This document shows, piece after piece, positions 5,040 through 30,829 of a stretch of 64,000 bases of DNA; positions within the stretch are counted from its first letter, which is position 1; every line of letters starts with the position of its first letter. The notes beneath the pieces were generated by a model that saw only the letters and a list, made by a program, of their open reading frames with translations, ran no database searches and was not told the origin of the DNA. Position numbers and translations under genes: made by a program. The stretch is from assembly GCA_017857235.1 (NCBI GenBank), contig JAFMDN010000004.1:218-64217 (forward strand), read 5' to 3'. The stretch comes from Methanobacteriota archaeon (GTDB taxonomy: Archaea > Thermoplasmatota > Thermoplasmata > Thermoplasmatales > GCA-001856825).

Positions 5040-5043
5040 CGTA

Positions 5044-12140: not shown

Positions 12141-12144
12141 TTGA

Positions 12145-12903
12145 ATGGTTGCAGTAGTAAATGTAAATGGGGAAAAGATTAAAAATGTGGATTTACCACC
12201 TGCATTCTCTTATCCAATAAGGAGGGATTTGATAAATCTATTTGTAAACGCATATATGTCAAATTCAAGAACTCCTTATGGTACATATTGGTTCGCAGGC
12301 AACAGAAGAGTAGGCCATAATTTAGGACCTAATCACGGTATAGCTAGATACCCGAGGGTTGCTGGGACAACAAGGGGAGTAATGTTAGCAAATGCAAGGG
12401 GAGGTAGGAGTGCCCATCATCCTGTCGTAGAAAAAGTATGGGAAATGAAAATTAATGAAAAACAGAAAAAGCTAGCTAAATTATCTGCACTATCAGCAAC
12501 TTCCATGATAGAATTAGTTAGGGGAAGAGGTCACAGATTCAAGGCTGAGGAGGTTCCTGTAGTTGTTGAGAATAAAATTGAAGAGGTAGAGAAGGCTGAG
12601 TATTTAACAGAAATTCTCAAGAAAATTGGAGTTTATGATGATGTGATAAGGGCCAAGGAGGGAACAAAGATTAGGGCAGGAAGGGGAAAAAGCAGGAACA
12701 GACCATATAGAACACCCAAAAGCATCCTCCTAGTAGTTAAGGATAAGTCAAAAATTGGGAAAGCTGCAAGGAACTTGGCCGGGGTTGACGTTAAAACTCC
12801 AAATCAGCTAAATGCATACGTATTGGCCCCTGGAGCACATCCAGGCAGGCTTATGGTAATAACTGAGGGCGCGCTTGATGAAATAAGGGGGTGGAACTTT
12901 TGA
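12145..12903 (+). CDS. rpl4: 50S ribosomal protein L4
   Basis: 252 aa. Conserved position and archaeal L4/L1e-like sequence (RAGRGKSRNRPY). Confidence 0.93.
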   Translation: MVAVVNVNGEKIKNVDLPPAFSYPIRRDLINLFVNAYMSNSRTPYGTYWFAGNRRVGHNLGPNHGIARYPRVAGTTRGVMLANARGGRSAHHPVVEKVWEMKINEKQKKLAKLSALSATSMIELVRGRGHRFKAEEVPVVVENKIEEVEKAEYLTEILKKIGVYDDVIRAKEGTKIRAGRGKSRNRPYRTPKSILLVVKDKSKIGKAARNLAGVDVKTPNQLNAYVLAPGAHPGRLMVITEGALDEIRGWNF

Positions 12904-13157
12904 ATCCATATGACATTCTTATAAAACCCTATGTAACTGAAAAAACAATGCTCCAAATTGAAAGAGAGAATAAGATATGGTTCATAGTAAGTGAAAAAAG
13001 CTCGAAGCCCGAAATTAAGAAAGCTGTTGAGGAAATTTCGGGGATGAAGGTTGATAAGATAAATGTTATGAGAGATAAGGAAGGAAAAAAGGCCGTGGTT
13101 AAGCTCAAATCGGATTACTCAGCAGAAGAGCTTGCCACAAAGCTGGGGATATTCTGA
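12891..13157 (+). CDS. rpl23: 50S ribosomal protein L23
   Basis: 88 aa with IKPYVTEKTM. Conserved order. The exact start (GTG 12891 or TTG 12900) is uncertain. Confidence 0.9.
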   Translation: MELLNPYDILIKPYVTEKTMLQIERENKIWFIVSEKSSKPEIKKAVEEISGMKVDKINVMRDKEGKKAVVKLKSDYSAEELATKLGIF

Positions 13158-13166
13158 GGTGATATA

Positions 13167-13868
13167 ATGGGAAAGAGAATTATTCCACAAAGGAGAGGTC
13201 GTGGCGGATTAGTTTATAGAAGTCCGAGTCATAGATATTACACAGATCTAAAGTACCCTGAATTAGAATCCTGGGAAGGTAAAGTGATAGACTTCGTAAA
13301 AGACCCAGGGCATTATACTCCATTGGCATTGGTAGAAATGAATGACAATAAAAAGGCATTATTTTTAGCCCATAGTGGTATGTTTATTGGGCAGAAGGTA
13401 AAGGGTGGAATTAATGCTGAACCAATAGAGGGAAATACTTTACCTTTAGGTTCAATACCCGATGGAATGCTAGTTTATAATGTAGAGTTAAGACCAGGCA
13501 CTGGTGGGAACATTGCAAGAACACCCGGGTCTTTCTGTACAGTCGTAGCCCATGGTGAAAAGGTGACTTTAAAACTTCCTTCAGGTGAGTTAAAGGATTT
13601 CATTCCTTCGTGCAGAGCAACTATCGGTATAGCTGGAGGGGGAGGAAGGAATACAAGACCATTTATGAAGGCAGGTAAAAAAATCCATGCATATCAATCA
13701 AGGGCAAAGAGGCCTTACACTGTTAGGGGAGTAGCCATGAATGCAGCAAATCATCCTCACGGGGGTGGCAATCACCAGCATGTGGGTAGGCCATCTACCG
13801 TAGGTAGGAATACTCCTCCTGGTAGGAAGGTAGGAAGATTATCTCCTAAAAAGAAGAAGGTGAAATGA
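13167..13868 (+). CDS. rpl2: 50S ribosomal protein L2
   Basis: 233 aa with RGVAMNAANHPHGGG. SD AGGTGAT upstream. Confidence 0.95.
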   Translation: MGKRIIPQRRGRGGLVYRSPSHRYYTDLKYPELESWEGKVIDFVKDPGHYTPLALVEMNDNKKALFLAHSGMFIGQKVKGGINAEPIEGNTLPLGSIPDGMLVYNVELRPGTGGNIARTPGSFCTVVAHGEKVTLKLPSGELKDFIPSCRATIGIAGGGGRNTRPFMKAGKKIHAYQSRAKRPYTVRGVAMNAANHPHGGGNHQHVGRPSTVGRNTPPGRKVGRLSPKKKKVK

Positions 13869-13869
13869 A

Positions 13870-14325
13870 ATGGCAGAGGATAAAAAGTTAAAATCCACTA
13901 AAGCTATTAAAAGAACAAAAAGGAAGAGTGCGAAAAGTATAACAGAGAGAGGGAAGGAATTATTATTCAAGGGTAAAACTCTGGAAGAACTTCTAGAGAT
14001 GAAGATGGAGGACCTCCTTAAAATTCTTCCCGCAAGGGCAAGGAGATCATTGAAGAGAGGTTACAATTCAGAGCAGAAAAAATTGCATGAGAAATTGTTG
14101 GAGAGGGATCAGGTTAAGACGAGAGTAAGGGACTTAATCATACTCCCCCAATACGTAGGAAAAGTTGTTTCTGTGTATGACGGTAAACAATATCAGACGT
14201 TTACGATTAAAGAGGAAATGATAGGTCATTATCTTGGTGAATTCGTTATGACCAGGAAGGAAGTTAAACACTCTGGCCCTGGAGTTGGAGCAACAAGAGG
14301 CTCAAAGTTCCTGCCACTTAAGTAA
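13870..14325 (+). CDS. rps19: 30S ribosomal protein S19
   Basis: 151 aa with YDGKQYQTFTIKEEMIGHYLGEF. Conserved order. Confidence 0.93.
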   Translation: MAEDKKLKSTKAIKRTKRKSAKSITERGKELLFKGKTLEELLEMKMEDLLKILPARARRSLKRGYNSEQKKLHEKLLERDQVKTRVRDLIILPQYVGKVVSVYDGKQYQTFTIKEEMIGHYLGEFVMTRKEVKHSGPGVGATRGSKFLPLK

Positions 14326-14334
14326 GGTGATAAG

Positions 14335-14778
14335 ATGAAGTATGTAATTGAAGTTGATGAAAAGAAATCCGCGAAAGCAACTTACCCAAACTCTCCCATA
14401 TCACCAAGGGATGCGCTTGAGGTTGCCAGGACTATAAAGGGTATGAAACTTGAAGATGCAAAGGAATTCTTGGAGGATGTAATTGCAAAAAAGAGGGCAG
14501 TCCCTTACAGAAAATTCCTTGATTCGGTTTCCCATAGAAAGGGTGTTGGTTCTGGTAGATACCCGGTAAAAGCAGCTAAATATTTCCTGGAGACATTAAA
14601 AAATGCTGAAAACAATGCCGAATTTAAACAGCTTGATGTTGATAAACTAGTAATTAAAAGTGCAGTGGCCAATTTAGCACCTCCTATTAAATATTATACT
14701 TTCAAAGCCTTTGGATCTAGTGGAAAATTCTATAGGGAAAGGGTCCACATTCAAATAATATTGGAGGAGTTAGAATGA
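14335..14778 (+). CDS. rpl22: 50S ribosomal protein L22
   Basis: 147 aa. Conserved order and L22/L17e-like sequence. Confidence 0.92.
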   Translation: MKYVIEVDEKKSAKATYPNSPISPRDALEVARTIKGMKLEDAKEFLEDVIAKKRAVPYRKFLDSVSHRKGVGSGRYPVKAAKYFLETLKNAENNAEFKQLDVDKLVIKSAVANLAPPIKYYTFKAFGSSGKFYRERVHIQIILEELE

Positions 14779-15407
14779 AGGAATTAAAATTTTTAAAAGA
14801 AAATATACGAAACCAGCTGATAAAGGAATATTTAATAAAGGAAATAGGGGATGCTGGGTTTGGAGGTCTTGAAATACAGAGAACTCCACAGAATACCATT
14901 GTACTGCTAAAAGTTGAGAAACCGGGGCTTGTAATTGGAAGAAGGGGTCAAAAGATAAGGAGTATGGAAGAGTATCTTGAAAGAACTTTCAATTTGAATA
15001 GTCCATTAATTAAGGTTGAACCAGCAGAACAACCAGCGCTAAATGCCCAAATTATGGCGGAAAGACTTGCCAGATCAATAGAAAAAGGTTGGCACTATAG
15101 GAGGGCAGGGCACAGTATATTGAAGAGGATTATGGATGCAGGTGCAAGGGGCGGTCAGGTTAGGATAGGGGGAAAATTGAGTGGTGAAAGAGCTAGAGCT
15201 GTGAAATATACCGCCGGAAAAATAATATCATCTGGCTATCCATCAGAATACATAGATGAGGGAAGGGCAACCGCAATGACAAAACCCGGTATAATTGGAG
15301 TTACTGTTAAAATATTGAGGAATGATATTAAGCTACCTGACGACATTGTTATTAGGGAATTGGAGGGGGGTGAATCCAATGGCGGAAATCAAGATCAAAC
15401 AACTTAG
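14775..15407 (+). CDS. rps3: 30S ribosomal protein S3
   Basis: 210 aa with a KH-domain segment (VLLKVEKPGLVIGRRGQKI). Conserved order. Confidence 0.93.
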   Translation: MKELKFLKENIRNQLIKEYLIKEIGDAGFGGLEIQRTPQNTIVLLKVEKPGLVIGRRGQKIRSMEEYLERTFNLNSPLIKVEPAEQPALNAQIMAERLARSIEKGWHYRRAGHSILKRIMDAGARGGQVRIGGKLSGERARAVKYTAGKIISSGYPSEYIDEGRATAMTKPGIIGVTVKILRNDIKLPDDIVIRELEGGESNGGNQDQTT

Positions 15408-15585
15408 GGCCATGAACAAGGATGATCTTCTAAAAAAGTACAATGAACTCAAGGAGGAGTTGATGAGGGAAAGAGGGATATCCGCTATGGGCGGTGCTCC
15501 ACCTAGTCCTGGAAAGATCGAATCTCTTAGGAGGCAGATCGCCAGGATTGAGACAATAATGAGGGAGAAGAAAAATGAGGGATGA
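15379..15585 (+). CDS. rpl29: 50S ribosomal protein L29
   Basis: MAEIKIKQLRAMNKDDL... starts at ATG 15379 behind a GGGGGTGA SD. The ORF-track start at 15322 adds an implausible 19-aa extension inside rps3. Confidence 0.9.
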   Translation: MAEIKIKQLRAMNKDDLLKKYNELKEELMRERGISAMGGAPPSPGKIESLRRQIARIETIMREKKNEG

Positions 15586-15865
15586 TAGATTCCTTAAGGA
15601 TCTGACGCCTATTGATGAAATCGCAAGAGAAACACAGACAATAAAGATAGAGTTAGATAAGAGAAGGTATGGGAAATTTGTCACCATAGTTTCAGGATTT
15701 GATACTAAAGCAGAAGATATATATGAATTGGCTAAGACATTGAAGAAAAAAACTGCTGCAGGAGGCACAGTCAAAGATAATAAAATTGAATTACAGGGGG
15801 ATCAGAGAGAAAGAGTTAAAAAGGTTCTTGAAGAAATGGGATTTAGGGTAGAGGTGGTTCAATGA
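15575..15865 (+). CDS. sui1: Translation initiation factor aSUI1 (eIF1 homologue)
   Basis: 96 aa with KRRYGKFVTIVSGFD...KKKTAAGGTVKDNKIELQGDQRERVKKVLEEMGF, a typical SUI1 fold sequence. Confidence 0.88.
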   Translation: MRDDRFLKDLTPIDEIARETQTIKIELDKRRYGKFVTIVSGFDTKAEDIYELAKTLKKKTAAGGTVKDNKIELQGDQRERVKKVLEEMGFRVEVVQ

Positions 15866-16119
15866 ATCCCTTATTCACAGATATAATAGGTGAGAATGTA
15901 AAGGTGGTCAGATCTAAAGATCCTACCATGTTAAATAGGAAAGGTGTGGTTGTAGAGGAGTCGAAGAATATGATATATATAATTGAGAACGACAGGGAAA
16001 TTGCATTACCTAAGAAAATAATTGATTTAGAAATCAAGGGCAAAATCTATGATATGTCCAGGCTGATGATCAGGCCTGAGGATAAAATTAGAAAAATGAG
16101 GAGGAAGGGTAAAATATGA
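15862..16119 (+). CDS. rnp1: RNase P protein component 1 (Rpp29/Pop4 homologue)
   Basis: 85 aa with an Sm-like core (GENVKVVRSKDPTMLNRKGVVVEESKNMIYI). Conserved position between L29 and S17. Confidence 0.85.
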   Translation: MNPLFTDIIGENVKVVRSKDPTMLNRKGVVVEESKNMIYIIENDREIALPKKIIDLEIKGKIYDMSRLMIRPEDKIRKMRRKGKI

Positions 16120-16442
16120 AGAACATAGGTATAGATGTTAAGGCACCGGAAGAAGTCTGTCATGATAAGAAATGTCCATTCCACGGTGAACTAAATGTGA
16201 AATCACCAATAATAGAGGGAGAAGTTGTAGCCGTAAACATGAAAGGAACTGTTACCGTTAAGAGGGAATATGTTAGAAAAATCCCGAAATATGAGAGATA
16301 TGAAAAGAGGTTCAGAAAGTACCATGCACATCTCCCAGGTTGCATCCATGTAAAAGTGGGGGATAAGGTTAGAATTGCTTATTCCAGGCCTTTGGCTAAA
16401 TCAGTTTCCTTTGTCGTTATAGAGAGGGTGGGATCAGAATGA
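16116..16442 (+). CDS. rps17: 30S ribosomal protein S17
   Basis: 108 aa. Conserved order and S17/S11e-like sequence. Confidence 0.92.
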   Translation: MKNIGIDVKAPEEVCHDKKCPFHGELNVKSPIIEGEVVAVNMKGTVTVKREYVRKIPKYERYEKRFRKYHAHLPGCIHVKVGDKVRIAYSRPLAKSVSFVVIERVGSE

Positions 16443-16837
16443 AGGGCTTGGCAGGTAGACAGATTAGAGGTTTACCATTAGGAGCTAAACTTGAGTGTGC
16501 AGATAACACTGGAGCTAAGGTAATTTCGCTAATTAATGTAAAGGCATACCATAATACCAAGGATAGAGTGCCGGTAGCTTCAGTAGGGGATATGATCATA
16601 GCCTCCGTAAAAAAGGGAACTCCTGAAATGAGGAGGAAAGTTGTATATGCAGTTGTAATAAGGCAAAGGAAAGCCTTTAGAAGACCTGATGGCCTAATGG
16701 TAGAATTCGAGGATAATGCCGCCGTCCTGGTTCAGGATAATGGAGAAACCAGAGGAACCGAAATTAAAGGGCCTGTAGCCAAAGAAGCTGCAGAAAGGTG
16801 GCCCAGGGTTGCTGCATTGGCAAGTACTATTATATGA
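16439..16837 (+). CDS. rpl14: 50S ribosomal protein L14
   Basis: 132 aa with LECADNTGAK and IIASVKKG motifs. Confidence 0.95.
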   Translation: MKGLAGRQIRGLPLGAKLECADNTGAKVISLINVKAYHNTKDRVPVASVGDMIIASVKKGTPEMRRKVVYAVVIRQRKAFRRPDGLMVEFEDNAAVLVQDNGETRGTEIKGPVAKEAAERWPRVAALASTII

Positions 16838-16843
16838 GGTGAT

Positions 16844-17284
16844 ATGGTGCAGAAAATAAATGTTCATTTGTCCAAGGAATTGTATGAGAAATATGGAATA
16901 AAGAAATTCCCCGTTCGTAAGGGGGATGTGGTTAGGATTGTCAGGGGGGACTCAAAGAAAGATGATAAAAACAATGTTAAAGGGAAAGAAGGGAAGGTCC
17001 TTCAGGTTCTAAGAGAGGAAGGTAAATTGATAATTGAGAACATAAACATCTCTAAGGCCGATGGTAAAATGAAACCAAGGAAAATTGATGCCTCTAATAC
17101 CATATTAGTAAAATTAAATCTTGATGATAAGCTTAGAAAGGAAAAAATCCTTCAATTGGCAAGGTCAAAGAACAAGGAAGTGGAGGATTTGGATGAAGAA
17201 TCTATTGAAGAAGAGAATCAAGATAAAAATCAGGAATCCAAAGAAAATAAAAATGCTGGGGAAGAGGTGAAGGAGGATGAGTAA
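16844..17284 (+). CDS. rpl24: 50S ribosomal protein L24 with an acidic C-terminal tail
   Basis: 146 aa with a KOW region (VRKGDVVRIVRGD). The last ~35 aa are a low-complexity Glu/Asp/Lys/Asn tail. Confidence 0.9.
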   Translation: MVQKINVHLSKELYEKYGIKKFPVRKGDVVRIVRGDSKKDDKNNVKGKEGKVLQVLREEGKLIIENINISKADGKMKPRKIDASNTILVKLNLDDKLRKEKILQLARSKNKEVEDLDEESIEEENQDKNQESKENKNAGEEVKEDE

Positions 17285-17975
17285 TCACCTGAAGAGATTG
17301 GCAGCACCTAAGACATGGAAGCAGCCCAGGAAAACCTATTATTGGGCGGTAAAAGCTGCACCGGGCCCACATCCGATAGAGCGCTCTATACCACTGCTAG
17401 TTTTCATCAGAGATATTATGAATTTAGCAGATAATTCCAAGGAAGCCAAATCAATAATAATGGCCGGTAAGGTTCTTGTGGATGGGAGAATAGTAAAGAA
17501 TTATAAATTCCCGGTCGGGTTTATGGATGTAATTACGGTTCCATCTGCAAACATTTACATGAGAGTTCTCATAGATAATAATGGAATATTAAGGTTAAAA
17601 GAAATTAAACCTGAGGAATCCACCTGGAAGCTTGTCAAAGTAACATCTAAGAAAATTACTGAAGGTGGAAAGATACAGATAGGAACACATGATGGTAGAA
17701 CAATAATTACAGAACAAAAAAATATTAAGAGAGGAGATACGCTGAAGATTTCTATACCGGACCAGAAAATTATAGACCATCACCCCTTAGTAAAGGATAC
17801 AAAAGTTTACATAACGGGAGGTGCGCACATAGGAACAATAACCGAAATTGAGGACATAGAAATAAGCAGAAGTTACCAAGAAAATACAGTGGACACAAAA
17901 GACAATTTCACTACAACAGTTTCTAATGTTTTCGTTCTGGGAAGGTCAGCTAATGAGATAGGGGGTGTAGCATAA
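17277..17975 (+). CDS. rps4e: 30S ribosomal protein S4e
   Basis: 232 aa with an N-terminal HLKRLAAPKTW signature. Confidence 0.93.
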   Translation: MSNHLKRLAAPKTWKQPRKTYYWAVKAAPGPHPIERSIPLLVFIRDIMNLADNSKEAKSIIMAGKVLVDGRIVKNYKFPVGFMDVITVPSANIYMRVLIDNNGILRLKEIKPEESTWKLVKVTSKKITEGGKIQIGTHDGRTIITEQKNIKRGDTLKISIPDQKIIDHHPLVKDTKVYITGGAHIGTITEIEDIEISRSYQENTVDTKDNFTTTVSNVFVLGRSANEIGGVA

Positions 17976-18490
17976 TGTCGATGGAAGATGTTGTAATTGA
18001 TAAGGTTACAATAAACATAGGTGTAGGGGAAGCCGGTGAAAAGATTGAAAAAGCCAAGAAAGTAATTGAATTGCTTACAGGTAGAACACCTACGGTAACC
18101 CTTGTGAAAGCAACAAATAGGGAATTTGGCATTAGAAAAGGTCAAGCTATAGGTGTAAAGGTCACTTTGAGGGGTGAAGAAGCTGATAAATTCCTGAGGG
18201 AAGCACTTTGGGTGAAAAATAATAAGGCATTGAGCTATTCCTTTTCTAATCAGGCTACTTTCAGTTTCGGCATTTCAGATTATACAGACTTCAAGGGAAT
18301 GAAATATAACCCAGAAATCGGAATATTTGGTATGGACATTAATGTTACTTTTAAGAGAAGAGGTGGGTTCAGGGTTAGCAGGAGGAGAATTAATAGAAGA
18401 CCTATCCCTAAGAAGATCAGGATAAGGAGAGAAGAAATGATGGATTACATGAGAAAAAATTATGGACTGGAAATTGTGGAGGCTGATTAA
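17975..18490 (+). CDS. rpl5: 50S ribosomal protein L5
   Basis: 171 aa. Conserved order and L5/L11e-like sequence. Confidence 0.93.
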
Positions 18491-18492
18491 CA

Positions 18493-18654
18493 ATGGCTCA
18501 ACCTGTGCTTAGACCGAAAAAGAATTACGGCAGAAACAAGGGCTGCGAAAGATGCGGAAGGAAAAGAGGGATTGTAAGAAGGTATGGCCTCAGATTATGC
18601 AGGCAGTGTTTTAGAGAAGTTGCACCTGAATTAGGATTCAAGAAGTTCTCGTGA
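18493..18654 (+). CDS. rps14: 30S ribosomal protein S14 (zinc-binding type; S29e homologue)
   Basis: Not in the ORF track (53 aa). My translation is [53 protein letters not shown], with CxxC...CxxC. It sits at the expected position between L5 and S8. Confidence 0.9.
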
Positions 18655-18655
18655 G

Positions 18656-19048
18656 GTGGAAAAAATGGGAGACACATTAAATGAGGCCTTAATTAAGATA
18701 AAAAATGCAGCAAAACTTGGAAAGCCATACGTAGAAGTGAGAACATCCAATCTAGTAGGGAATGTCCTTAAAGTATTTCAGAAGTATGGATACATTGAAG
18801 AATTTGAGTTCAGTGAAAATGGAAAGGGTGGAATATTCAGGGTTAAACTGGCGAAGACAATCAATGACTGCGGAATCATAGTACCAAGATTTTCTATTAA
18901 AAAGGATGAGATTGAAAAGTGGGAAGCTAGATACCTACCGGCCCAGGATATCGGTATTATTGTGATGACAACAACAGAGGGAGTTATAAGCGATATTGAG
19001 GCCAAGTCAAAAGGTTTAGGTGGAAGGGCATTGGCGTATATTTATTGA
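18656..19048 (+). CDS. rps8: 30S ribosomal protein S8
   Basis: 130 aa. Conserved order. The start could be GTG 18656 or ATG 18665. Confidence 0.92.
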   Translation: MEKMGDTLNEALIKIKNAAKLGKPYVEVRTSNLVGNVLKVFQKYGYIEEFEFSENGKGGIFRVKLAKTINDCGIIVPRFSIKKDEIEKWEARYLPAQDIGIIVMTTTEGVISDIEAKSKGLGGRALAYIY

Positions 19049-19058
19049 GGTGGAATAA

Positions 19059-19604
19059 ATGGAAACAGTTATTGAGGTTCCAGAAAAGGTTTCGGTTTCT
19101 TTAGATCCCAACAGCAATATACTTAATGTCAAGGGACCAAGGGGAGAAGTTAAGAAAAAGTTCCTATATGAATTTGTGAAACTGGAACTTACAGATGGCG
19201 GTAAGAGTATCAGGATATACACTCTTAGGGATAAAAGGAACGATAAGGCTGTAGTCGGAACATGGGAATCGATAATCAAGAGTTTATTTATAGGAGTAAC
19301 AAAAGGATTTGTATATACAATGAAGATTGTATACGCTCACTTCCCAGTTAAGGTAACAGTAAAAGGAGATGAAGTAACACTTGATAATTTCCTTGGTGAA
19401 AAGTCTCCAAGGAAAATTAAAATTGATCCCAGTGTAAAGGTGACGGTTAAAGGAGATACAGTTACGCTTGAAGGGAATGATCTAGAACTCTTAGGTAACA
19501 CCGCAGCCAAGATAGAGAGACTTAGCAAGATCAAAAACTTTGATCCCAGGGTATTCCAGGATGGAATTTACATTGTGAGGAAAGGTGATGTACTTGAAGC
19601 CTGA
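19059..19604 (+). CDS. rpl6: 50S ribosomal protein L6
   Basis: 181 aa with the duplicated L6 repeat (VKVTVKGDEVTL / VKVTVKGDTVTL). Confidence 0.93.
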   Translation: METVIEVPEKVSVSLDPNSNILNVKGPRGEVKKKFLYEFVKLELTDGGKSIRIYTLRDKRNDKAVVGTWESIIKSLFIGVTKGFVYTMKIVYAHFPVKVTVKGDEVTLDNFLGEKSPRKIKIDPSVKVTVKGDTVTLEGNDLELLGNTAAKIERLSKIKNFDPRVFQDGIYIVRKGDVLEA

Positions 19605-19989
19605 AATGAGTAAGGAGATGTTACGTTTATTGGAATTAAGGAATGAAATGAACAGAAAAAGACCTGAATTTCATAGACAGGAGTGGTTCAGATATAAGAA
19701 GCTCGGTGATGCCTGGAGGAAGCCCCGTGGAAAACATTCTAAATTGAGGGAGAAAAGAGGATATAGGCATGCATTTGTTGAATCTGGATACAGGGGACCA
19801 AAGCTTGTAAGGTATCTGCACCCGAGTGGTTTCAGGGAGGTTTATGTAACTAACATATCTCAATTAGATAAAGTAGATCCAAAAACTCAAGCTATACGGA
19901 TTTCTGCAACAGTGGGAAAGAAAAAGAAGTTGGAGATACTGGAAAAGGCTAAATCTATGGGAATTAAGGTTCTTAACGGGGGGATTTAA
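19585..19989 (+). CDS. rpl32e: 50S ribosomal protein L32e
   Basis: RQEWFRYKKLGDAWRKPRGKHSKLR signature. An alternative start at ATG 19606, just after the L6 stop, is possible. Confidence 0.9.
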   Translation: MMYLKPEMSKEMLRLLELRNEMNRKRPEFHRQEWFRYKKLGDAWRKPRGKHSKLREKRGYRHAFVESGYRGPKLVRYLHPSGFREVYVTNISQLDKVDPKTQAIRISATVGKKKKLEILEKAKSMGIKVLNGGI

Positions 19990-20445
19990 TTGGTAACGCT
20001 AGCAACCCAGAAGAGGATAGCTGCAGACCTATTAAAAGTTGGTCAAACTAGAGTATGGATCGATCCAAAAAGCTATGAGGAAGTTTCTGAAGCTGTAACC
20101 AGAGAAGATATTAGAAAGCTAATAAAGAGAAATGTAATTCAAAAGAAACCTAAAAAAGGTAATTCCAGGGGCCGCTATAAAAGATTGAAAGCCCAAAAGG
20201 ATAAAGGAAGGAGAAGGGGTCCTGGATCAAGAAAGGGAACTAGAAATGCCAGGGAACCATCTAAAGAAAGGTGGATCAAGAACGTAAGATCAATGAGAAG
20301 GAAACTCAGGGAGTTAAGAGATACCGGAAAAATTGAGAAAAAAGTATATAGAGAGTACTACAGGAAGATAAAAGGAGGAGTTTTCAGGAATACTTCTCAG
20401 CTATTAACCCACTTAAAAGATTACGGTTTGATAAAGGGTGATTAA
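19990..20445 (+). CDS. rpl19e: 50S ribosomal protein L19e
   Basis: 151 aa with LATQKRIAADLLKVGQTRVWIDP at the N-terminus. Confidence 0.93.
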   Translation: MVTLATQKRIAADLLKVGQTRVWIDPKSYEEVSEAVTREDIRKLIKRNVIQKKPKKGNSRGRYKRLKAQKDKGRRRGPGSRKGTRNAREPSKERWIKNVRSMRRKLRELRDTGKIEKKVYREYYRKIKGGVFRNTSQLLTHLKDYGLIKGD

Positions 20446-20943
20446 ATGCATTCAAGATATATTATGCCATTGAAAAGGAGGAGGCTTAATAAGACAAATT
20501 ATAGAAAAAGATTGGCCTTAGTAAAAACTGGAGTTCCAAGGGCTGTTATAAGAAAGTCTTTAAAGCATACCAGAGTAGATATAGTAGAGTACAGGCCATC
20601 TGGTGACAGGGTTGTCTCTCACGGATGCACCATCGAACTTAAGAAATTTGGATGGAAGGCTCCAACGGGAAATTTGCCTTCTGCGTATCTGGCAGGCTAC
20701 ATGTCGGGTCTAAGAGCTAGGAAAAAGGGTATTACAAAGGTATATGCGGACCTCGGATTGCAGAAGGTTGTAAAAGGAGGAAGGTTAATGGCAGCCATAA
20801 AAGGTCTGCTTGATGCGGGCATTGAAATCCCAGTAGATGAGGATTTACTGCCTGATGAATCTCATCTTAAAGGAGAGCATCTGGAATCTGTTGATAATAA
20901 ATCAATTGAAATAGTTAAAAAGGCTATGGAGGAATTGCTATGA
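20446..20943 (+). CDS. rpl18: 50S ribosomal protein L18
   Basis: 165 aa. Conserved order and L18/L5e-like sequence. Confidence 0.92.
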
Positions 20944-21614
20944 GTGACAGTTTAACGGATTGGACACCTAAGACAAAACTTGGGAGGATGGTCAAAGAAG
21001 GAAAATTAAAAACCATATCTGAAGTGCTTGCCACTAGGATGCCCATAAGAGAACCGCAAATAGTGGATATGCTACTTCCAAATCTGGAAGATGAAGTAAT
21101 TGATATTAAGATGGTTCAGAAAATGTCAGATTCAGGCAGGAAATCAAAATTTGCAGCTACGGTAGTGGTGGGGAATAGGAACGGTTATGTAGGAATAGGC
21201 CACGGTAAGGCAAGGGAAACAGGAGATGCAATCGAAAAGGCGCTAGAGAATGCCAAATTGAACATAATAGAAATAAAAAGAGGATGTGGCTCATGGGAAT
21301 GCGGTTGTGGAAGAAGCCATACCGTGCCTTTCGAAGTTGTTGGCAAATCGGGATCGGTTAGGGTTTATTTGAAACCTGCTCCACAAGGTGTAGGACTGGC
21401 AATAGGTGATATACCAAAGAAAGTGCTTGAATTAGCAGGAATTTCAGATACGTGGGGTTTCTCAGAAGGACATACCAAGACATCGGTAAATTTTGCCTAT
21501 GCTACTTTCAATGCCCTTAAGGAGACTGCTAGATTCAAGATAAATGATAAGCTGGTACTCTCAACCCCAATATATAAAGGTGGTGTTATGCATGTACGCA
21601 GTGGTAAAGATTAG
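20940..21614 (+). CDS. rps5: 30S ribosomal protein S5
   Basis: 224 aa with [17 protein letters not shown] and [16 protein letters not shown]. Confidence 0.93.
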
Positions 21615-22074
21615 AGGTTCAAACCATACGAAGGTTGATATAAAATATGCATTAAGAGAGCTAAGACTTCATAGGGTAAACCATCTTGTGCTAATACCAG
21701 AAGATATGATTGGCCAGCTAAAAAAGGTTAAAGACTATGTAACATGGGGAGAAATTGATAAGGAGCATCTCATAAAACTTTTGAAAGAAAGGGGCAAGTT
21801 GTTGGGCGATAAGCCAATTACTGAAGAATGGCTTAAGCAGAACGGGTTCAACAGTTTCCAGGAATTTGCAGAAAAGCTATTGGATGGAAAGATAAAACTT
21901 AAAGATTATCCAGATATTAAGCCAGTATTCAGGATGAATCCTCCTAAGAAGGGTTATGGAAAAACCAAAGAGCCATTTAAACTCGGTGGAAACCTTGGCT
22001 ACAGGGGTATAGAAATAAATAAATTGATAGATAGAATGATTGAGGGTGGTAAAATTGGTCAGGCAAAAAACTAA
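21592..22074 (+). CDS. rpl30: 50S ribosomal protein L30
   Basis: [10 protein letters not shown]... starts at ATG 21592 behind an AAAGGTGGTG SD. The ORF-track start at 21544 lies inside rps5. Confidence 0.9.
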
Positions 22075-22492
22075 GAAATATAGGGGTACTCTTTACGGAA
22101 GGGGAAAAAAGGCCGGCAGAGGAAAAGGCAAGAGGGGAGGTAGTGGAATGGCTGGCCTTGGCAAGCACAGATGGATATGGATGGTCAAATACGAACCGGA
22201 CCACTATGGATCACATGGATTTGTGAGGCACGCTGTTGAAAGGGAAATTAAGGCAATCAACGTGGGTGAATTAGACAGGAATTATGAGAAGTTCATTTCA
22301 CAAGGTCTCGTCGAAATAAAAAATGATAAGCTATATTTTGATTTAAACAAAATGGGCTATGATGTTCTACTTGGCGGAGGCCAGGTAGGGAGGCCCATGG
22401 TAATAAAAGTTGCTAAGGCCACAGAGAAGGCTGTAGAGAAAATAAAAAATGCGGGCGGCGAGGTAGAAATAGATGGAGATAAAGAGGAATAG
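22055..22492 (+). CDS. rpl15: 50S ribosomal protein L15
   Basis: A (M)[11 protein letters not shown]...GRGKGKRGGSGMAGLGKHRW N-terminus fits L15. TTG 22055 behind GAGGGTGGT is preferred. The track start is TTG 22040. Confidence 0.88.
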   Translation: MVRQKTKKYRGTLYGRGKKAGRGKGKRGGSGMAGLGKHRWIWMVKYEPDHYGSHGFVRHAVEREIKAINVGELDRNYEKFISQGLVEIKNDKLYFDLNKMGYDVLLGGGQVGRPMVIKVAKATEKAVEKIKNAGGEVEIDGDKEE

Positions 22493-24227
22493 GGCAACCG
22501 CTATACCGGTACTGGTCATATTCCTCTTTAACGTTTATCTATTTTATAGGGCTTTCCATTACGATAAAGTATATACAACGGTACTCTCGCTTTCAGTAGC
22601 TCCTTTATATTATCTTACATACCTGCTTATAAGTTACAATGGACCCGGATCTAAATTATATGGCTGGAAGAATTTGGTTAACCATCTTCCTGCTGTAAAG
22701 AAGCCAGGCAGGCATGTGAGATTTAAAGAGAAGTTTCTGTGGACTTCCATTATATTAATAATTTACTTTGCACTGTCAAACATCTATATATATGGTCTAG
22801 ATAGATCGCAAATTATTGATGTGTTTGCATCCTTCAGGAGCATATTCGCAGGTCAGGCTGGATCCATAATGGATCTTGGTATTGGGCCTATAGTAACAGC
22901 ATCAATAATAATGCAATTGTTTGTGGGTGCAAAGATAATAAATATTGACTTAACAAAATCTGAGGATAAGGCTCTTTACCAGGGGGCACAAAAGCTCCTG
23001 GTTATTCTAATGATATTTGTTGAGGCAATTCCACAGGTTTTTGGTTATTTGCCCCCAGATCCAGCATTTATTTCAGCCATGAATGGCTTCCTCCCAGGAT
23101 ATGGATTGATGCTTGCCAGGATGTTCATAATATTCCAGTTGTTCATGGGGTCATATCTTGTATTCCTTATGGATGAGGTTGTATCCAAATGGGGTATAGG
23201 TTCAGGTATATCCTTGTTCATAGCAGCTGGTGTTTCACAGGCCCTGATTACAGGTACACTAAATTGGGTGCCTACCAATACCAATCAGCCTTTGTCCTTG
23301 ACCAACCCTCCAGTTGGTACAATACCTAAAACCTTCTATCTCCTATCGCAATCCAATGCACAAGAACTATTTTCGGTTAGCCTTGAGAGGATATTGTTCG
23401 CCCAGCCAAATCCAGTAATAGCATTAATTGGAACAATATTCGTATTCTATCTGGTCGTATGGGTCCAATCTGTTAAAGTAGAGCTTCCTCTTGCACATGA
23501 AAGGGCTAGGGGAGCAAGGGGAAGATATCCTATACAGTTGATGTATGCTTCAAATATACCTGTAATATTGGCTTCAGCCGTTTTGGCTAATCTTGCCATG
23601 TGGTCTCTTCTATTCTGGACAAACCCCACATTGCAGAAAGTACCTATACTAGGGCACAACTGGTATTTAGGTGCCTATCCATCTCAGAGTCTAGCCCAGC
23701 AACTTAATATCCAACCCACAACTCCCATAGGAGGACTGGCGTGGTATCTCAGCAATCCTAATGGAATAGCAAATTGGCTTTTCCCACTTCTTGATCCCCA
23801 GGCATATACTCTTGAACTGTTCAACCACCCACCATGGGCCATGGGTGTCCATGTTTTGGCATACGTTGCCTTCATGGTAGGAGCTTCTGTATTATTTGCT
23901 AAATTCTGGATCGAGACAACTGGTATGAATTCAGAAGGTGTAGCAAAGCAGATACAGAGCTCCGGTATGCAGATACCCGGTTTCAGAAGGGACCCGAGGG
24001 TCCTTAAGAAAGTTCTTGATAAATATATACCAGCTATAACCATATTCAGCGGAGCAGCAGTGGGAGCTCTCGCTGCAATGGCAGATTTGATAGGTACAGT
24101 CGGTAATGCTTCTGGTACAGGTGTATTGCTAACAGTCGGAATCATAATACAATTCTATCAGGCAATGGGCAAAGAACAGCTTTCGGAAATGTATCCTTTC
24201 ATGAGGGATCTATTTGGAGGTATGTAA
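22473..24227 (+). CDS. secY: Protein translocase subunit SecY (with N-terminal extension)
   Basis: 584 aa. The canonical SecY N-terminus (LPAVKKPGRHVRFKEKFLWT) begins only around residue 72. Multiple TM helices. Conserved position after L15. Confidence 0.92.
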   Translation: MEIKRNRATAIPVLVIFLFNVYLFYRAFHYDKVYTTVLSLSVAPLYYLTYLLISYNGPGSKLYGWKNLVNHLPAVKKPGRHVRFKEKFLWTSIILIIYFALSNIYIYGLDRSQIIDVFASFRSIFAGQAGSIMDLGIGPIVTASIIMQLFVGAKIINIDLTKSEDKALYQGAQKLLVILMIFVEAIPQVFGYLPPDPAFISAMNGFLPGYGLMLARMFIIFQLFMGSYLVFLMDEVVSKWGIGSGISLFIAAGVSQALITGTLNWVPTNTNQPLSLTNPPVGTIPKTFYLLSQSNAQELFSVSLERILFAQPNPVIALIGTIFVFYLVVWVQSVKVELPLAHERARGARGRYPIQLMYASNIPVILASAVLANLAMWSLLFWTNPTLQKVPILGHNWYLGAYPSQSLAQQLNIQPTTPIGGLAWYLSNPNGIANWLFPLLDPQAYTLELFNHPPWAMGVHVLAYVAFMVGASVLFAKFWIETTGMNSEGVAKQIQSSGMQIPGFRRDPRVLKKVLDKYIPAITIFSGAAVGALAAMADLIGTVGNASGTGVLLTVGIIIQFYQAMGKEQLSEMYPFMRDLFGGM

Positions 24228-28120: not shown

Positions 28121-29089
28121 ATGGAATTCGGCATTGTTTCATTGGGAAATCATGCAATAAATAGAGTAATCCCAGCCATTGTGAGCACCGACAACAAGAT
28201 AACAGCAATATACTCCACAGATAAGCAGAAAGGGACAAAATTTGCCAGGGAGTTAGGAGCCCATTATTACGATGATCTGGAAAAAATGATGCATGAAAGT
28301 TTCCAGGCAGTTTATATATCCTCCCCAAACTACCTCCACTATAAATATACGAAAATAGCCCTAACGCATGACAAACACGTACTATTGGAAAAACCAATGA
28401 CACTTAGCGTAAGGGAATCAAGAGAACTTCATGATATAGCTAACCAGAAGGGTCTTAGATTGTCTATAGGGTTCCATCTAAGGTTCCATCCATCTCTTGA
28501 TTATATTAAGGACGTATTATCAAAAGGAGGATTAGGTGAAATTAGATTAGTGAGTGGGCAGTGGTCTCATTTTTCATCCAGAAATCTTGATAATTCATGG
28601 TGGGGTGTGGACTATATGGTCGGTGGTGGATCCATTGTTGGAACGGGTGTACACGTTATGGACACAATTTATAACATTTATCATGAACTCCCCAGAGGAT
28701 TAATCGCTATAAGTTATCCAAATGGAAAAACCATTGATGAACATTTCAACATTATTTTTGATTATGGGGAGTCAAAAACAGGGATCGCCATTAGCAGCAG
28801 GAAGATACCTGATGGAAACAATGACCTTTTGATACAGGGTGAAAGCGGATACATAAGAGTTAAAAATTTCTTTTCAACGAGTGTGGATTCAAGGATAGAA
28901 ACAGGTGAAAAAACCTTAGATGTCCCCAAAGTAGACATGTATAGGGAAGAAATAAGGGACTTCGTAGGAAAGGGAATAAAGATAGCAAACTCATATGACG
29001 GGGTTGTTTCAACTGCTATGCACCTGGGAGCTCAATTTTCATCAAAAGAAGGGAGGTACATCACTTTGAAAGAGATTCTGGGCATATAG
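28121..29089 (+). CDS. Gfo/Idh/MocA family NAD(P)-dependent oxidoreductase
   Basis: 322 aa with an N-terminal Rossmann start (FGIVSLGNHAINRVIPAI) and an EKP motif (VLLEKPMTL). Confidence 0.8.
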   Translation: MEFGIVSLGNHAINRVIPAIVSTDNKITAIYSTDKQKGTKFARELGAHYYDDLEKMMHESFQAVYISSPNYLHYKYTKIALTHDKHVLLEKPMTLSVRESRELHDIANQKGLRLSIGFHLRFHPSLDYIKDVLSKGGLGEIRLVSGQWSHFSSRNLDNSWWGVDYMVGGGSIVGTGVHVMDTIYNIYHELPRGLIAISYPNGKTIDEHFNIIFDYGESKTGIAISSRKIPDGNNDLLIQGESGYIRVKNFFSTSVDSRIETGEKTLDVPKVDMYREEIRDFVGKGIKIANSYDGVVSTAMHLGAQFSSKEGRYITLKEILGI

Positions 29090-30044
29090 ATTTCCTGAAG
29101 CATCCAGCACATTTACCCTCATTGTTGTGGTTGCGGTGCGCTACATCTGTTTCTACCATTTTATCCATATCTTTAAGAATTTTCTTCAGCAGGAATTTTA
29201 AATGTTCGGTAATTTCAATTCTATATGTCCCATTTGGATAATTTAGAATTCCGTATTTAACCTCATAATTATAATTGTCCTCTATTAAAACAGCGTAACT
29301 TACAAGCTGCATTAGGTGTGAAAATGGGATTGAGGATGGCTTTTTACTACTCTTGATCTCCACTGGTATGAGCTGGGAATCTTCTTTCAGTATTAAATCC
29401 GGAACTCCCCTGAGCCTCCATTTTTCACTTATGAGAACTGGATTATCTCCATCTTCCATATAATATATCTTATCGGGATCGATTTCATTTACAATTATAA
29501 TTTCAGATGAGGTCAATATCTTGTAAAAGTTATAGGTGTCTAAGAGTATTATGATGTTCGAGAGAGCTATAGTAAAAAATGCAAAATCATTCCTAAAGGA
29601 ATAATAAAAATAGAGGATTAGAGTCAAAATTAAGCTCGATATGCTCAGATAAAGAATAAGATCTTCAAGTTTTTTAGATTCTTTAAGCTTCCTGATCAAA
29701 GAAGTTGCCAGATAGATTGCTGTCCCGAATAGCAAAGACGAAAGGGAAGCAATTAAAATAATGAGAACTAAAATACTGGAACCGATAAACATTAAGGGAA
29801 TTGTGGCTCCCACTAAAACTATAGTGGCAATATATAGGGCTAGGAATAACCTATTGTAAATTTTAAAAAGTTTCTTATTATTTATGGCATGTTTTATTCT
29901 TTTGAAAAAATTATTTTGGTATTCAATTCCCTGAGAAATTTCTACCTTGCTTCCTTTAAGTGCTAAATATAGATTTAGGGGGCAGTATGCGAATTTTTCC
30001 ACATCCCCCGCTGACCAATATCTTTTATCATTATAAATTTTCAA
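29061..30044 (-). CDS. Cas4/DUF83-family PD-(D/E)xK Fe-S nuclease homologue with an internal ~4-helix transmembrane insertion
   Basis: 327 aa. Motifs are Cys21 (FAYCPLNLYL), D216 (RGVPDLIL), E229/K231 (PVEIK), QhxxY (MQLVSY) and a C-terminal C312-x2-C315-x5-C321. Residues ~66-172 form four long hydrophobic stretches. TTG start at 30044. No in-frame ATG lies near the N-terminus. Confidence 0.7.
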   Translation of the reverse strand: MKIYNDKRYWSAGDVEKFAYCPLNLYLALKGSKVEISQGIEYQNNFFKRIKHAINNKKLFKIYNRLFLALYIATIVLVGATIPLMFIGSSILVLIILIASLSSLLFGTAIYLATSLIRKLKESKKLEDLILYLSISSLILTLILYFYYSFRNDFAFFTIALSNIIILLDTYNFYKILTSSEIIIVNEIDPDKIYYMEDGDNPVLISEKWRLRGVPDLILKEDSQLIPVEIKSSKKPSSIPFSHLMQLVSYAVLIEDNYNYEVKYGILNYPNGTYRIEITEHLKFLLKKILKDMDKMVETDVAHRNHNNEGKCAGCFRKSICPESLSK

Positions 30045-30195: not shown

Positions 30196-30297
30196 ATGCC
30201 TGCAATTGTATTAAATATATAATTTTTGAGTAAGAATTAATAGAGCTATAATCATCTAAATCGAAGACCATAAATATATCGGAATGATTCACCCTGC
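30196..30297. promoter_or_regulatory. Divergent promoter region (HicB-like/Cas4-like operon leftwards, rpl40e rightwards)
   Basis: AT-rich TATA-like elements sit about 20-30 nt upstream of each start codon: AAATATATAATTTTT at 30218-30232 for the minus strand and ATAAATATAT at 30270-30279 for rpl40e. This suggests near-leaderless transcripts. Confidence 0.4.
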
Positions 30298-30447
30298 ATG
30301 CCATTCAAGGAAGCTATGGATAGAATATTCAACAAGAAAATATGCATGAAATGTGGAGCATCGAATCCAATAAGGGCAGAAAAATGCAGAAAATGTGGGA
30401 GCAAGCAATTAAGATTGAAGGTCAGGGAGAGGAAGAGTGGTCAATAA
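30298..30447 (+). CDS. rpl40e: 50S ribosomal protein L40e
   Basis: Not in the ORF track (49 aa). My translation is [49 protein letters not shown], with the RIFxKKICMxC...CRKC zinc-ribbon signature of L40e. Confidence 0.85.
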
Positions 30448-30829
30448 AATTTAAATTTATTAATCTTGAGATTATAGTTTCAAGAAATTTTATTTCCAAT
30501 TCAAGACACATAGTCGGATTATTACCATCGAGATCGAATTCTGGAAGCTTTGGAATGATTAATTTTATTTTTTCCGTTTTAACAGTTGATTGGTAAGTAC
30601 ATGGTATTGATTGGGACTTGGCTGAATGGCAAAGGTCTCTTGCTAATTCATCCAAAGATTCAATTGTAGGTGCATTTACATTCCCGCTTGAAATTTCTAT
30701 ACAATTATTGGAGAAATTATTTTTGGCTTCAATTTTATAACCTCTGATTACAATTCCATTTAATATTCTAATTAATTTTTTGGCAGTTTCATCGTTTTCA
30801 CTATAACACAAACTTATAGTTCGAACCAT
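30422..30829 (-). CDS. Hypothetical protein (135 aa) downstream of and overlapping the NAPRTase gene
   Basis: The ORF overlaps the upstream gene's stop by 16 nt and the 3' end of rpl40e by 26 nt (convergent). No recognisable motif. Confidence 0.4.

Follow-up and report, generated by a model that had tools for sequence, protein, structure and literature searches.

The window analysed here is the whole stretch of 64,000 nucleotides (nt) taken from contig JAFMDN010000004.1 of a Thermoplasmatota archaeon, with a G+C content of ~37%. At 29061-30044 on the minus strand it carries a gene for a protein of 327 amino acids (aa), which the databases annotate, like its relatives, as (CRISPR-associated) Cas4. 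We propose that the protein is an integral-membrane member of the Cas4 family (DUF83; RecB-like PD-(D/E)xK nucleases with an iron-sulfur, Fe-S, site) which works outside CRISPR, and we put the probability of this reading at roughly 0.6. A first-pass annotation had picked out the open reading frame (ORF) and listed Cas4 hallmark residues in it; all of them are present and conserved in the alignments and in a motif census of 70 related loci. The 29-nt overlap with a convergent gene, also noted there, is correct, as that gene ends at 29089. The parts of the locus are given below (TM, transmembrane; AF2, AlphaFold2; 8d3l_I is a type I-C Cas4 chain; loci carrying relatives have L numbers).

29061-30044, minus strand: whole gene of the predicted membrane-embedded Cas4-family nuclease, 327 aa, TTG start (ORF list, Cas4 profiles, full-length homologues)
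29865-30044, minus strand: N-terminal Cas4 element, residues 1-60 (spliced family profile against residues 7-60 of 8d3l_I)
29982-29984, minus strand: predicted Fe-S ligand C21 in FAYCPL (pairs with the N-terminal Cys of 8d3l_I)
29916-29930, minus strand: motif I, G39..Q43 (Gln here, His in 62 of 70 relatives)
29694-29861, minus strand: predicted TM hairpin 1, residues 62-117, helices 1 and 2 (hydropathy, AF2, short uncharged loop)
29676-29693, minus strand: basic loop between the hairpins, residues 118-123, RKLKES within RKLKESKKLED, predicted cytoplasmic (count of Lys and Arg)
29508-29675, minus strand: predicted TM hairpin 2, residues 124-179, helices 3 and 4, a diverged repeat of hairpin 1 (hydropathy, AF2, hhalign)
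29148-29468, minus strand: PD-(D/E)xK catalytic core, residues 193-299 (TIGR00372 positions 59-179, invariant columns, Foldseek)
29397-29399, minus strand: motif II, D216, within the catalytic core
29352-29360, minus strand: motif III, E229-x-K231, within the catalytic core
29295-29309, minus strand: QxxxY, Q246-Y250, within the catalytic core
29127-29138, minus strand: family-specific motif H303-R-N-H306, directly preceding the Cys triad
29082-29111, minus strand: C-terminal Cys triad C312-x2-C315-x5-C321, predicted Fe-S ligands (aligns to FCNNCSLQSIC of 8d3l_I)
29061-29089, no strand: 3'-end overlap of the nuclease gene with the convergent Gfo/Idh/MocA gene (28121-29089, plus strand), 29 nt; the arrangement is repeated in L001
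30031-30195, minus strand: upstream gene for a 54-aa micro-protein, probably the first cistron (ORF; 14-nt overlap with the nuclease start)
30215-30227, minus strand: TATA-like box AAAAATTATATAT, 19 nt upstream of the micro-protein ATG, a conserved DNA block and putative promoter element

Cas4 identity of the nuclease

Profile searches recover the Cas4 and PD-(D/E)xK families, as the first-pass annotation had expected. The protein scores 82.8 bits with TIGR00372 (curated cutoff 65), residues 203-322 covering positions 59-179 of the 180 in the profile, and 45.2 bits with PF01930 (cutoff 22.7, E 1.4e-11), residues 212-321 covering positions 53-158. PDDEXK_1 is matched with E 2.5e-7 and the Cas4 models of PADLOC at about 1e-24; the only further match in PADLOC-DB 2.0 is a weak one to DruK (E 5.6e-5), which reflects the shared PD-(D/E)xK fold. 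Profile searches with the single sequence see only the C-terminal half of the protein. Residues 1-65 alone gave zero profile matches in NCBIfam, and when the insert was spliced out of the single sequence the NCBIfam match was not extended to the N-terminus.

A family profile from which the hydrophobic block of 18 members had been cut was searched against the PDB sequences, and here the alignment runs over the full length. The best match is the type I-C Cas4 chain 8d3l_I (E 6.9e-11), with profile positions 5-210 aligned to chain residues 7-202. In this alignment YCP stands opposite FCK, which holds the N-terminal cluster ligand, the G..H of motif I opposite EGQHLH, and CxxCx5C opposite FCNNCSLQSIC. 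Nine residues (C21, D216, E229, K231, Q246, Y250, C312, C315 and C321) are invariant in an alignment of 8 sequences, and in one of 33 sequences they are still invariant except for E229 and Y250, which are at least 90% conserved. The four Cys among them are the only ones in the protein. In the census GxPD and CxxCx5C occur in 70 of the 70 loci and ExK and QxxxY in 68 each. The HRNH motif, 6 residues ahead of the Cys triad, shows no variation among the 8 aligned sequences and is present in 69 of the 70 loci; its region aligns to HTPK of type I-C Cas4, with the first His alone in common, and the counterpart in the split forms described below is R-[NDS]-H.

The AF2 model of the nuclease, built with 33 homologues, has a mean predicted local distance difference test score (pLDDT) of 83.4 and a predicted template-modelling score (pTM) of 0.71. 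Its core matches Cas4, MGME1 and Dna2: a Foldseek search of the PDB places Cas4 chains on top (E from 3.5e-6 for 8d3l to 2e-5), followed by MGME1 (E 5e-5), Cas4-Cas1, Dna2 (E 3e-4), ACE1 and Pcal_0546, with AdnA/AddAB weaker. The fold matches to ACE1 structures are moderate (E 3e-4, root-mean-square deviation 12-19 Å). Because of the spliced-profile alignment and these AF2/Foldseek matches we regard the protein as a genuine Cas4-family fold which, to judge from alignment and model, is cut open between motif I and motif II. The profile cutoffs are exceeded, motifs II, III and QhxxY stand in the right order, and the four Cys and the core fold are there; the single contiguous soluble domain of 170-220 aa which is typical of Cas4 is not, as ~118 residues (62-179) interrupt it.

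The hallmark list of the first-pass annotation was right for every residue it named, but it had overlooked a substitution in motif I, where the His found in most loci is Gln43 in the window protein and in its relatives in L004 and L005 only. Gln can ligate or position a metal-bound water in other nucleases. In SSO0001 the motif I His, His62, is a metal ligand (quoted in PMC13621843). The substitution suggests that the activity of the window clade may be altered. In its strong form this would mean a catalytically impaired clade, its protein being chiefly a DNA-binding or scaffold protein tethered to the membrane; D216, E229, K231, Q246, Y250 and the four Cys are all intact in the clade, and we find such a loss of function improbable.

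The inserted block, its hairpins and the split genes

The block has 19-residue Kyte-Doolittle maxima of 2.34, 2.52, 2.13 and 1.44 for helices 1 to 4, and values do not exceed 1.1 elsewhere in the protein. The three helices above 2.1 are uncharged over 20-25 residues. In the AF2 model the helices of the block span residues 37-85, 91-116, 124-148 and 153-179 and are thus 25-49 residues long. Four long hydrophobic stretches had been described here by the first-pass annotation; the block as such is real, but the fourth helix is only marginally hydrophobic, its 1.44 being below the classical threshold of 1.6 in the window protein and the corresponding value above it in most relatives. The mean number of Lys and Arg residues in 33 homologues (23-81% identity) is 5.3 before helix 1, 0.33 in the loop between helices 1 and 2, 2.6 between helices 2 and 3, 0.45 between helices 3 and 4, and 5.0 after helix 4; the window protein has 5 such residues within 117-127. 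As this distribution follows the positive-inside pattern, the topology is predicted to be N-in/C-in, with both halves of the nuclease and the predicted Fe-S site in the cytoplasm. This bears on the suggestion that an envelope nuclease might act on DNA entering or leaving the cell: from its predicted place on the cytoplasmic side the nuclease cannot reach extracellular DNA, and the rest of the suggestion is speculation.

The number of hydrophobic windows was dropped as evidence for TM helices. In 12% of composition-matched shuffles there are three or more as well, the protein being rich in Ile and Leu, and the count is not significant. The TM call therefore rests on conservation, the charge pattern and the model. 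Hydropathy, charge alternation, the AF2 helices and the even number of helices in relatives together support four TM helices between motif I and motif II, in agreement with the insertion proposed earlier.

A word-indexed search found 7 relatives of the protein, and an exhaustive profile search of 1.84 billion representatives gave 2346 matches, 131 of them at <1e-30. Among the top 150 of these matches, four helices are found in 28 (+3) fused proteins, two in 16 (+9) and eight in 13; a further 45 proteins of less than 200 aa begin with one hydrophobic helix and are devoid of the N-terminal Cys. In fused forms the number of helices is always even (2, 4 or 8), which is what is expected because the two nuclease halves must meet on one side of the membrane. 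The relatives with eight helices (495-645 aa; P0031, P0041-44, P0051, P0057, P0058, P0060, P0066, P0078, P0079 and P0090) carry ~330 residues of this kind of hydrophobic sequence, and those with two (P0061, P0065, P0067 and others) have 255-290 aa. The members of the eight-helix cluster P0078 come from metagenome-assembled genomes (MAGs) of Thermoplasmatales/Thermoplasmata and are annotated as 'hypothetical protein' or 'Dna2/Cas4 domain-containing protein'.

The two hairpins of the block are related to each other. A profile-profile comparison with hhalign aligns hairpin 1 to hairpin 2 over 60 columns with 98.5% probability (E 2.5e-15), and a hidden Markov model of either hairpin finds 4 copies in eight-helix proteins, 2 in four-helix proteins and 1 in the two-helix protein P0061. 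On these profile matches the insert is a two-helix module which has been amplified in tandem and occurs once, twice or four times. Most members carry a module signature of roughly E-x6-A-x2-A-T-x-L-A...S/A-L-x-W-L-I/L-x-A-x2-F-L-Y, which has diverged in the window clade, and Pfam has no model for the module.

In some lineages the gene is divided within a hairpin. The Methanothrix loci L086 and L087 have an 87-aa gene which overlaps the gene of a 173-aa protein by 8 nt (two-gene unit at 4745-5522 in both); its product reads ...ISASEIAEYAYCPVAW...GREMH..., followed by one hydrophobic helix. In L088 (62-855) an 89-aa N-terminal half-gene overlaps the C-terminal half-gene by 4 nt, and in L089 (2747-3516) the N-terminal half is an 80-aa ORF which is uncalled in the source annotation. 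The N-terminal genes (80-89 aa) encode the Cys (YCP/FC), motif I with G..H and one TM helix, the C-terminal genes (171-175 aa) one TM helix, the catalytic core and the Cys triad, and the junctions are overlaps of 4-8 nt or a gap of 11 nt. An N-terminal half-gene precedes the single-TM C-terminal half in 3 of the 3 loci tested, and at least 45 representative clusters resemble such C-terminal halves. The break point would lie in the predicted extracytoplasmic loop of a hairpin. Each half carries one helix of the hairpin, and therefore pairing of TM helices must reunite the two halves of Cas4. Of the internal evidence, the split genes speak most strongly for the hairpin as a unit of structural assembly, and against a stretch that is hydrophobic by chance.

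The block could also be read as a helical bundle buried in a soluble and possibly toroidal Cas4 oligomer, which it would hold together. Large oligomers are formed by SSO0001 and the M. mazei solo-Cas4 (decamers), according to PMC12501428, and both the low value of helix 4 and the ease with which shuffled sequences yield hydrophobic windows would agree with a soluble protein. The three strongly hydrophobic, uncharged helices, the alternation of Lys and Arg, the strictly even helix number, the great length of the block in the eight-helix versions and the terminal hydrophobic helix on each split half speak against it, and we give a soluble bundle hardly any chance.

Distribution, gene neighbourhood and the upstream micro-protein

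In a pattern scan with one genome for each GTDB species, 476 genomes have a relative. The best 80 of the 476 are almost all Thermoplasmatota (Thermoplasmata, Methanomassiliicoccales, DHVE2/Aciduliprofundum and Sysuiplasma), with one Aenigmatarchaeota, and the close relatives of the window protein are from Thermoplasmatales/Thermoplasmata MAGs. Synteny is kept with L004 and L005, where the nuclease is 81% and 56% identical. The gene order of the window is also kept in L001/L005 (nuclease 56% identical): CysRS, a nicotinate phosphoribosyltransferase-like gene, a 135-aa ORF, L40e, the 54-aa ORF, the nuclease, Gfo/Idh/MocA, a Na/H exchanger, Cbf5 and on to SecY and the ribosomal proteins. The 135-aa ORF (30422-30829, minus strand) belongs to no Pfam family and is conserved in L001 (132 aa). 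The 49-aa zinc-ribbon ORF (30298-30447, plus strand), which is divergent from the micro-protein/nuclease unit, corresponds to ribosomal protein L40e according to a weak Pfam call on its L001 orthologue.

For the analysis of neighbours, ORFs were called in 70 loci with 10 kb flanks and clustered. Couplings are specific to clades. Upstream and co-directional, 17 loci have a gene for a TPD/PF14811 protein, 10 one for an IF-2B-family protein and, by clustering, 6 the 54-aa ORF; downstream and convergent, GlmS follows in 18 loci and a gene for a 105-aa two-helix protein in 17. The surroundings consist of genes for GlmS, sugar nucleotidyltransferase, IF-2B-family proteins, ribosomal proteins and tRNA synthetases, which agrees with the housekeeping context described for the window by the first-pass annotation. 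The partners seen elsewhere (TPD/CDIN1-like, PLD-LTD, IF-2B family, 105-aa membrane protein) are absent from the window.

The homologue search and the neighbourhood analysis show that the TM insertion is kept in relatives, and that the clusters around them include no cas-like ones in the 70 loci. There are no CRISPR-like arrays in 84 sequences (the window and 83 related loci), and none in the window by TRF; an Rfam scan of the window gave no matches. Among the 73 window proteins scanned the nuclease alone matches Cas4 models, and the listed PADLOC matches of these proteins contain no Cas1, Cas2 or Cas3 model, so that the earlier statement that the window is free of cas genes and repeats holds. 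Two window proteins match the Csa3 model of PADLOC weakly (best E 5.9e-8), and one matches SspA/DndA at about 1e-55 and is probably a housekeeping cysteine desulfurase. A search of 2.9 million viral contigs gave no relative. The gene thus behaves as part of the chromosome of Thermoplasmatota which is passed on vertically and has no link to cas genes: a CRISPR-associated Cas4 would be expected beside cas genes or an array, and neither adjoins it; like a solo-Cas4, it lies outside CRISPR-cas loci and is vertical and non-mobile.

Two other functions have to be weighed against this background. The protein might serve CRISPR adaptation in trans with a distant cas1-cas2, the membrane tether coupling spacer capture to DNA entry. 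It scores above the cutoff of TIGR00372, which is an 'equivalog' model for Cas4, annotation sources call it CRISPR-associated, and Thermoplasmata often carry CRISPR-Cas (PMC10354927). However, cas genes and arrays are lacking within 10 kb in 84 loci and in the 64-kb window, the proteins form a clade of their own with a private HRNH motif and a TM module, and the gene is kept in 476 genomes whatever its context. Cas4 is bound to the Cas1-Cas2 integrase in solved complexes, and a membrane-embedded form may or may not be able to bind it. We consider a function in trans very unlikely.

The protein might alternatively be a defence nuclease which destroys foreign DNA as it enters the cell, by analogy with Zorya and Kiwa; the hairpins would position it at, or sense, the entry site and the Cas4 domain would degrade the DNA end. 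Cas4 relatives do act in defence, in CRISPR adaptation and as the Argonaute-associated ACE1 which is among the fold matches, and the DruK match and the predicted membrane location point the same way. Kiwa reportedly couples membrane-embedded sensing to DNA-directed defence. Moreover, 4 loci have a coupled protein with LTD, two PLD and PKD domains which is probably extracellular and could be a nuclease. On the other side, the gene lies in no defence island and appears to be single-copy and syntenic across the phylum, and no other defence model of PADLOC matches the nuclease. Housekeeping context, vertical inheritance and absence from viral contigs thus give no support for a defence role, and the evolution of solo-Cas4 genes generally resembles that of housekeeping genes (Hudaiberdiev 2017, summarised in PMC12501428). 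A defence function seems unlikely to us. From the parts scanned, no Argonaute was recognisable among the 25 largest neighbour clusters, a search specific for PIWI not having been made, and no helicase partner was seen among the neighbour clusters of the 70 loci.

The LTD-PLD-PKD protein (lamin-tail domain, 2x PLD-like, PKD and a C-terminal TM helix) is membrane-anchored and probably extracellular. Its gene is tightly coupled upstream in the 4 loci, and it is gene -1 in L003 (1-2463), L022 and L076, with gaps of 13, -4 and 1 nt.

The TPD/PF14811 gene lies directly upstream and is co-directional in its 17 loci, for example L002 (5898-6650), L015, L016, L028-L030, L044 and L047. Its product is the archaeal orthologue of human CDIN1 (C15orf41): the TPD-18-ESK spacing is the same, the D-18-E-x-K spacing being identical to that of human D196/E214/K216. 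CDIN1 has recently been reported to be an RNA nuclease which cuts RNA in duplexes and hybrids, and the pairing with a membrane Cas4 may bear on the ancestral role of CDIN1. We take these two partners as hints to the process and not as evidence.

In the window lineage the nuclease is preceded by the micro-protein gene, which ends 14 nt inside the nuclease gene. An alignment of DNA from 5 genomes shows the TATA-like box at 30215-30227 as the only conserved upstream element, with diverging flanks. As the box precedes the 54-aa ORF, which in turn overlaps the nuclease start, the nuclease is most likely read as the second cistron of a bicistronic mRNA which is leaderless or nearly so, and the promoter of its own which the first-pass annotation had assigned to it is not right as it stands.

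The 54-aa protein is under striking constraint by comparison with its neighbour: between the window, L004 and L005 its gene shows 25-29 nt differences (21-27 of them at third codon positions) and 0 amino-acid changes, and the nuclease shows 62-144 amino-acid changes in the same three-genome comparisons. Its family consists of 35 clusters from Thermoplasmata only, all annotated as "hypothetical", and by tblastn it lies next to the nuclease in 8 distinct genomes. Elsewhere the ORF is found at the following positions.

L004 and L005, 9850-10011
L006, 9830-9991
L007, 9831-9992
L008, 9828-9989
L009, 9850-10011
L010, 2056-2217

The AF2 model of the micro-protein (pLDDT 94.6) is beta-beta-beta-alpha. 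No Pfam, PADLOC or PHROG model matches the protein, and the AF2 model has no significant match in the PDB, the best being dsRBD-like at E 0.2; a HicB-like antitoxin domain, which was considered, is not supported by this comparison. In the cultured Aciduliprofundum sp. MAR08-339 the homologue AciM339_0164 (annotated as 83 aa) precedes another gene of 115 aa (L084, 6252-6599) with overlapping stop and start, and neither the window nor any other locus has a homologue of this 115-aa gene. Because the micro-protein there precedes an unrelated gene, its link to the nuclease is lineage-specific and not obligate.

Further away, at 12000-22000, the window shows strongly positive GC and AT skews (GC skew 0.26-0.33) along a co-directional ribosomal-protein cluster leading to SecY (22473-24224). 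The skew is probably an effect of coding-strand composition.

Proposed role and comparison with known systems

In the integral-membrane Cas4 which we propose, two tandem hairpins interrupt the fold between the helix of motif I and the strand of motif II. C21 can meet C312, C315 and C321 on the cytoplasmic side to form a Cas4-type Fe-S site, and D216, E229, K231, Q246 and Y250 can form a metal-dependent active site. The hairpins may act as an anchor and an assembly module which holds the halves of the enzyme together. In the AF2 model the helix 37-85 runs unbroken from motif I into TM1, and the helix 153-179 from TM4 towards the core; such continuous helices would keep the active site on the surface of the membrane, where a mechanical coupling to the membrane domain is conceivable. 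Characterised Cas4 enzymes are 5'-3' single-stranded DNA (ssDNA) exonucleases, and the M. mazei solo-Cas4 is reported to nick plasmid (PMC12501428); by analogy, DNA ends or nicked DNA are the probable substrate. In the window lineage the nuclease would be co-expressed with the 54-aa partner and elsewhere coupled to a CDIN1-like PD-(D/E)xK nuclease. With low confidence we suggest a housekeeping role in the processing of 5' ends/ssDNA or nicked DNA lying at the membrane's inner face. Support for the molecular anatomy is good; that the protein processes DNA close to the membrane is what we infer from it.

Several of the observations above weigh against this reading. Helix 4 falls short of the classical threshold, the count of hydrophobic windows is not significant, the first 65 residues are silent in profile searches, the motif I His is replaced in the window clade, and the micro-protein has another partner in Aciduliprofundum. 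Furthermore, none of the neighbours is conserved across the whole family in the 70 loci, and the neighbourhood thus lends no direct support to a role. The context covers 10 kb flanks and the 64-kb window, and a distant CRISPR-cas locus in the same genomes is possible.

A wider hypothesis, to which we give slightly less than even odds, is that these proteins form an undescribed superfamily of integral-membrane Cas4 with 1, 2 or 4 hairpins inserted in the middle of the fold, in many lineages split and reassembled by helix pairing. It would be a core gene of Thermoplasmatota and take part in a membrane-coupled DNA (or RNA/DNA-hybrid) transaction which no known Cas4/AddB/Dna2-type enzyme performs. 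If true, such transactions could be the processing of DNA ends delivered at the membrane, or cleavage by a nuclease gated by the state of the membrane through the motif I-TM1 helix. Iron-sulfur nucleases of the Cas4, AddB, Dna2 and MGME1 types are known from work on soluble enzymes in CRISPR adaptation and DNA repair. A membrane version conserved throughout a phylum points to an undescribed DNA transaction at the archaeal cell membrane, and would be a concrete candidate in the long-open question of what solo-Cas4 does. A modular hairpin together with a natural division into two genes would be a rare case of an enzyme fold reconstituted via TM helix pairing, of interest for protein evolution and for the engineering of split or membrane-gated nucleases. 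There is a practical side as well: the label "CRISPR-associated protein Cas4" which pipelines assign over-counts CRISPR components in genomes of Thermoplasmatota, and the short N-terminal half-genes of split forms are missed, one of them (in L089) being uncalled.

The refuting case named in the first-pass annotation, an already characterised family with a known housekeeping role, did not turn up: no characterised family with a membrane-split Cas4 architecture was found in Pfam, NCBIfam, PADLOC or the literature. In the full-text literature, which is mostly that outside subscription journals, "split Cas4" and "membrane Cas4" have zero occurrences, arCOG annotations aside. Papers on Cas4 phylogenomics and solo-Cas4 biochemistry do not describe a membrane-embedded or split Cas4, nor does a survey of uncharacterised archaeal membrane proteins. 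The main text of a survey of PD-(D/E)xK proteins, in which TM segments were screened, has nothing specific on DUF83. The architecture may possibly have been noticed earlier by specialists.

CRISPR Cas4 (PF01930/TIGR00372; 8d3l of type I-C, 7mi4/7mi5 of Cas4-Cas1, 4ic1 of SSO0001 and 4r5q of Pcal_0546) shares its fold and motif order with the window protein. To our knowledge all characterised Cas4 proteins are soluble. The window protein differs from CRISPR Cas4 by its predicted ~118-residue four-helix TM block (62-179) between motifs I and II, by the absence of cas1/cas2 and arrays nearby, by the private HRNH and by the Gln which its clade has for the His of motif I. AddB, Dna2, Exo5 and MGME1 have a similar nuclease core and an Fe-S staple which joins N- and C-terminal segments; however, they are soluble, usually fused to or partnered with a helicase, and act in recombination or mitochondrial DNA maintenance.

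Membrane components are coupled to an action on DNA at the cytoplasmic face also in Kiwa (KwaA/KwaB) and Zorya (ZorAB with ZorC/D). The likeness is conceptual, since these are multi-gene systems of defence islands with no sequence relation to the window protein, whereas here one polypeptide, or two halves of a fold, is found in a housekeeping context. The competence nucleases EndA of S. pneumoniae and NucA of B. subtilis are bound to the cytoplasmic membrane through a single N-terminal anchor; their fold is unrelated and their catalytic domain lies outside the cell. In contrast, the catalytic domain of the window protein is predicted to be cytoplasmic and its fold to be interrupted by TM helices.

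The closest comparison is with the solo-Cas4 proteins (Hudaiberdiev et al., 2017, PMC5704561; for M. mazei PMC12501428), which likewise occur away from CRISPR-cas, are inherited vertically in surroundings of a housekeeping kind and have the four Cys for an Fe-S cluster. In these papers solo-Cas4 is described as soluble and membrane forms are unmentioned, in contrast to the predicted membrane-embedded window protein, and the M. mazei solo-Cas4 is reported to be without the RecB motif (PMC12501428), which the family of the window protein retains. We would class the protein as a solo-Cas4 lineage whose architecture is new.

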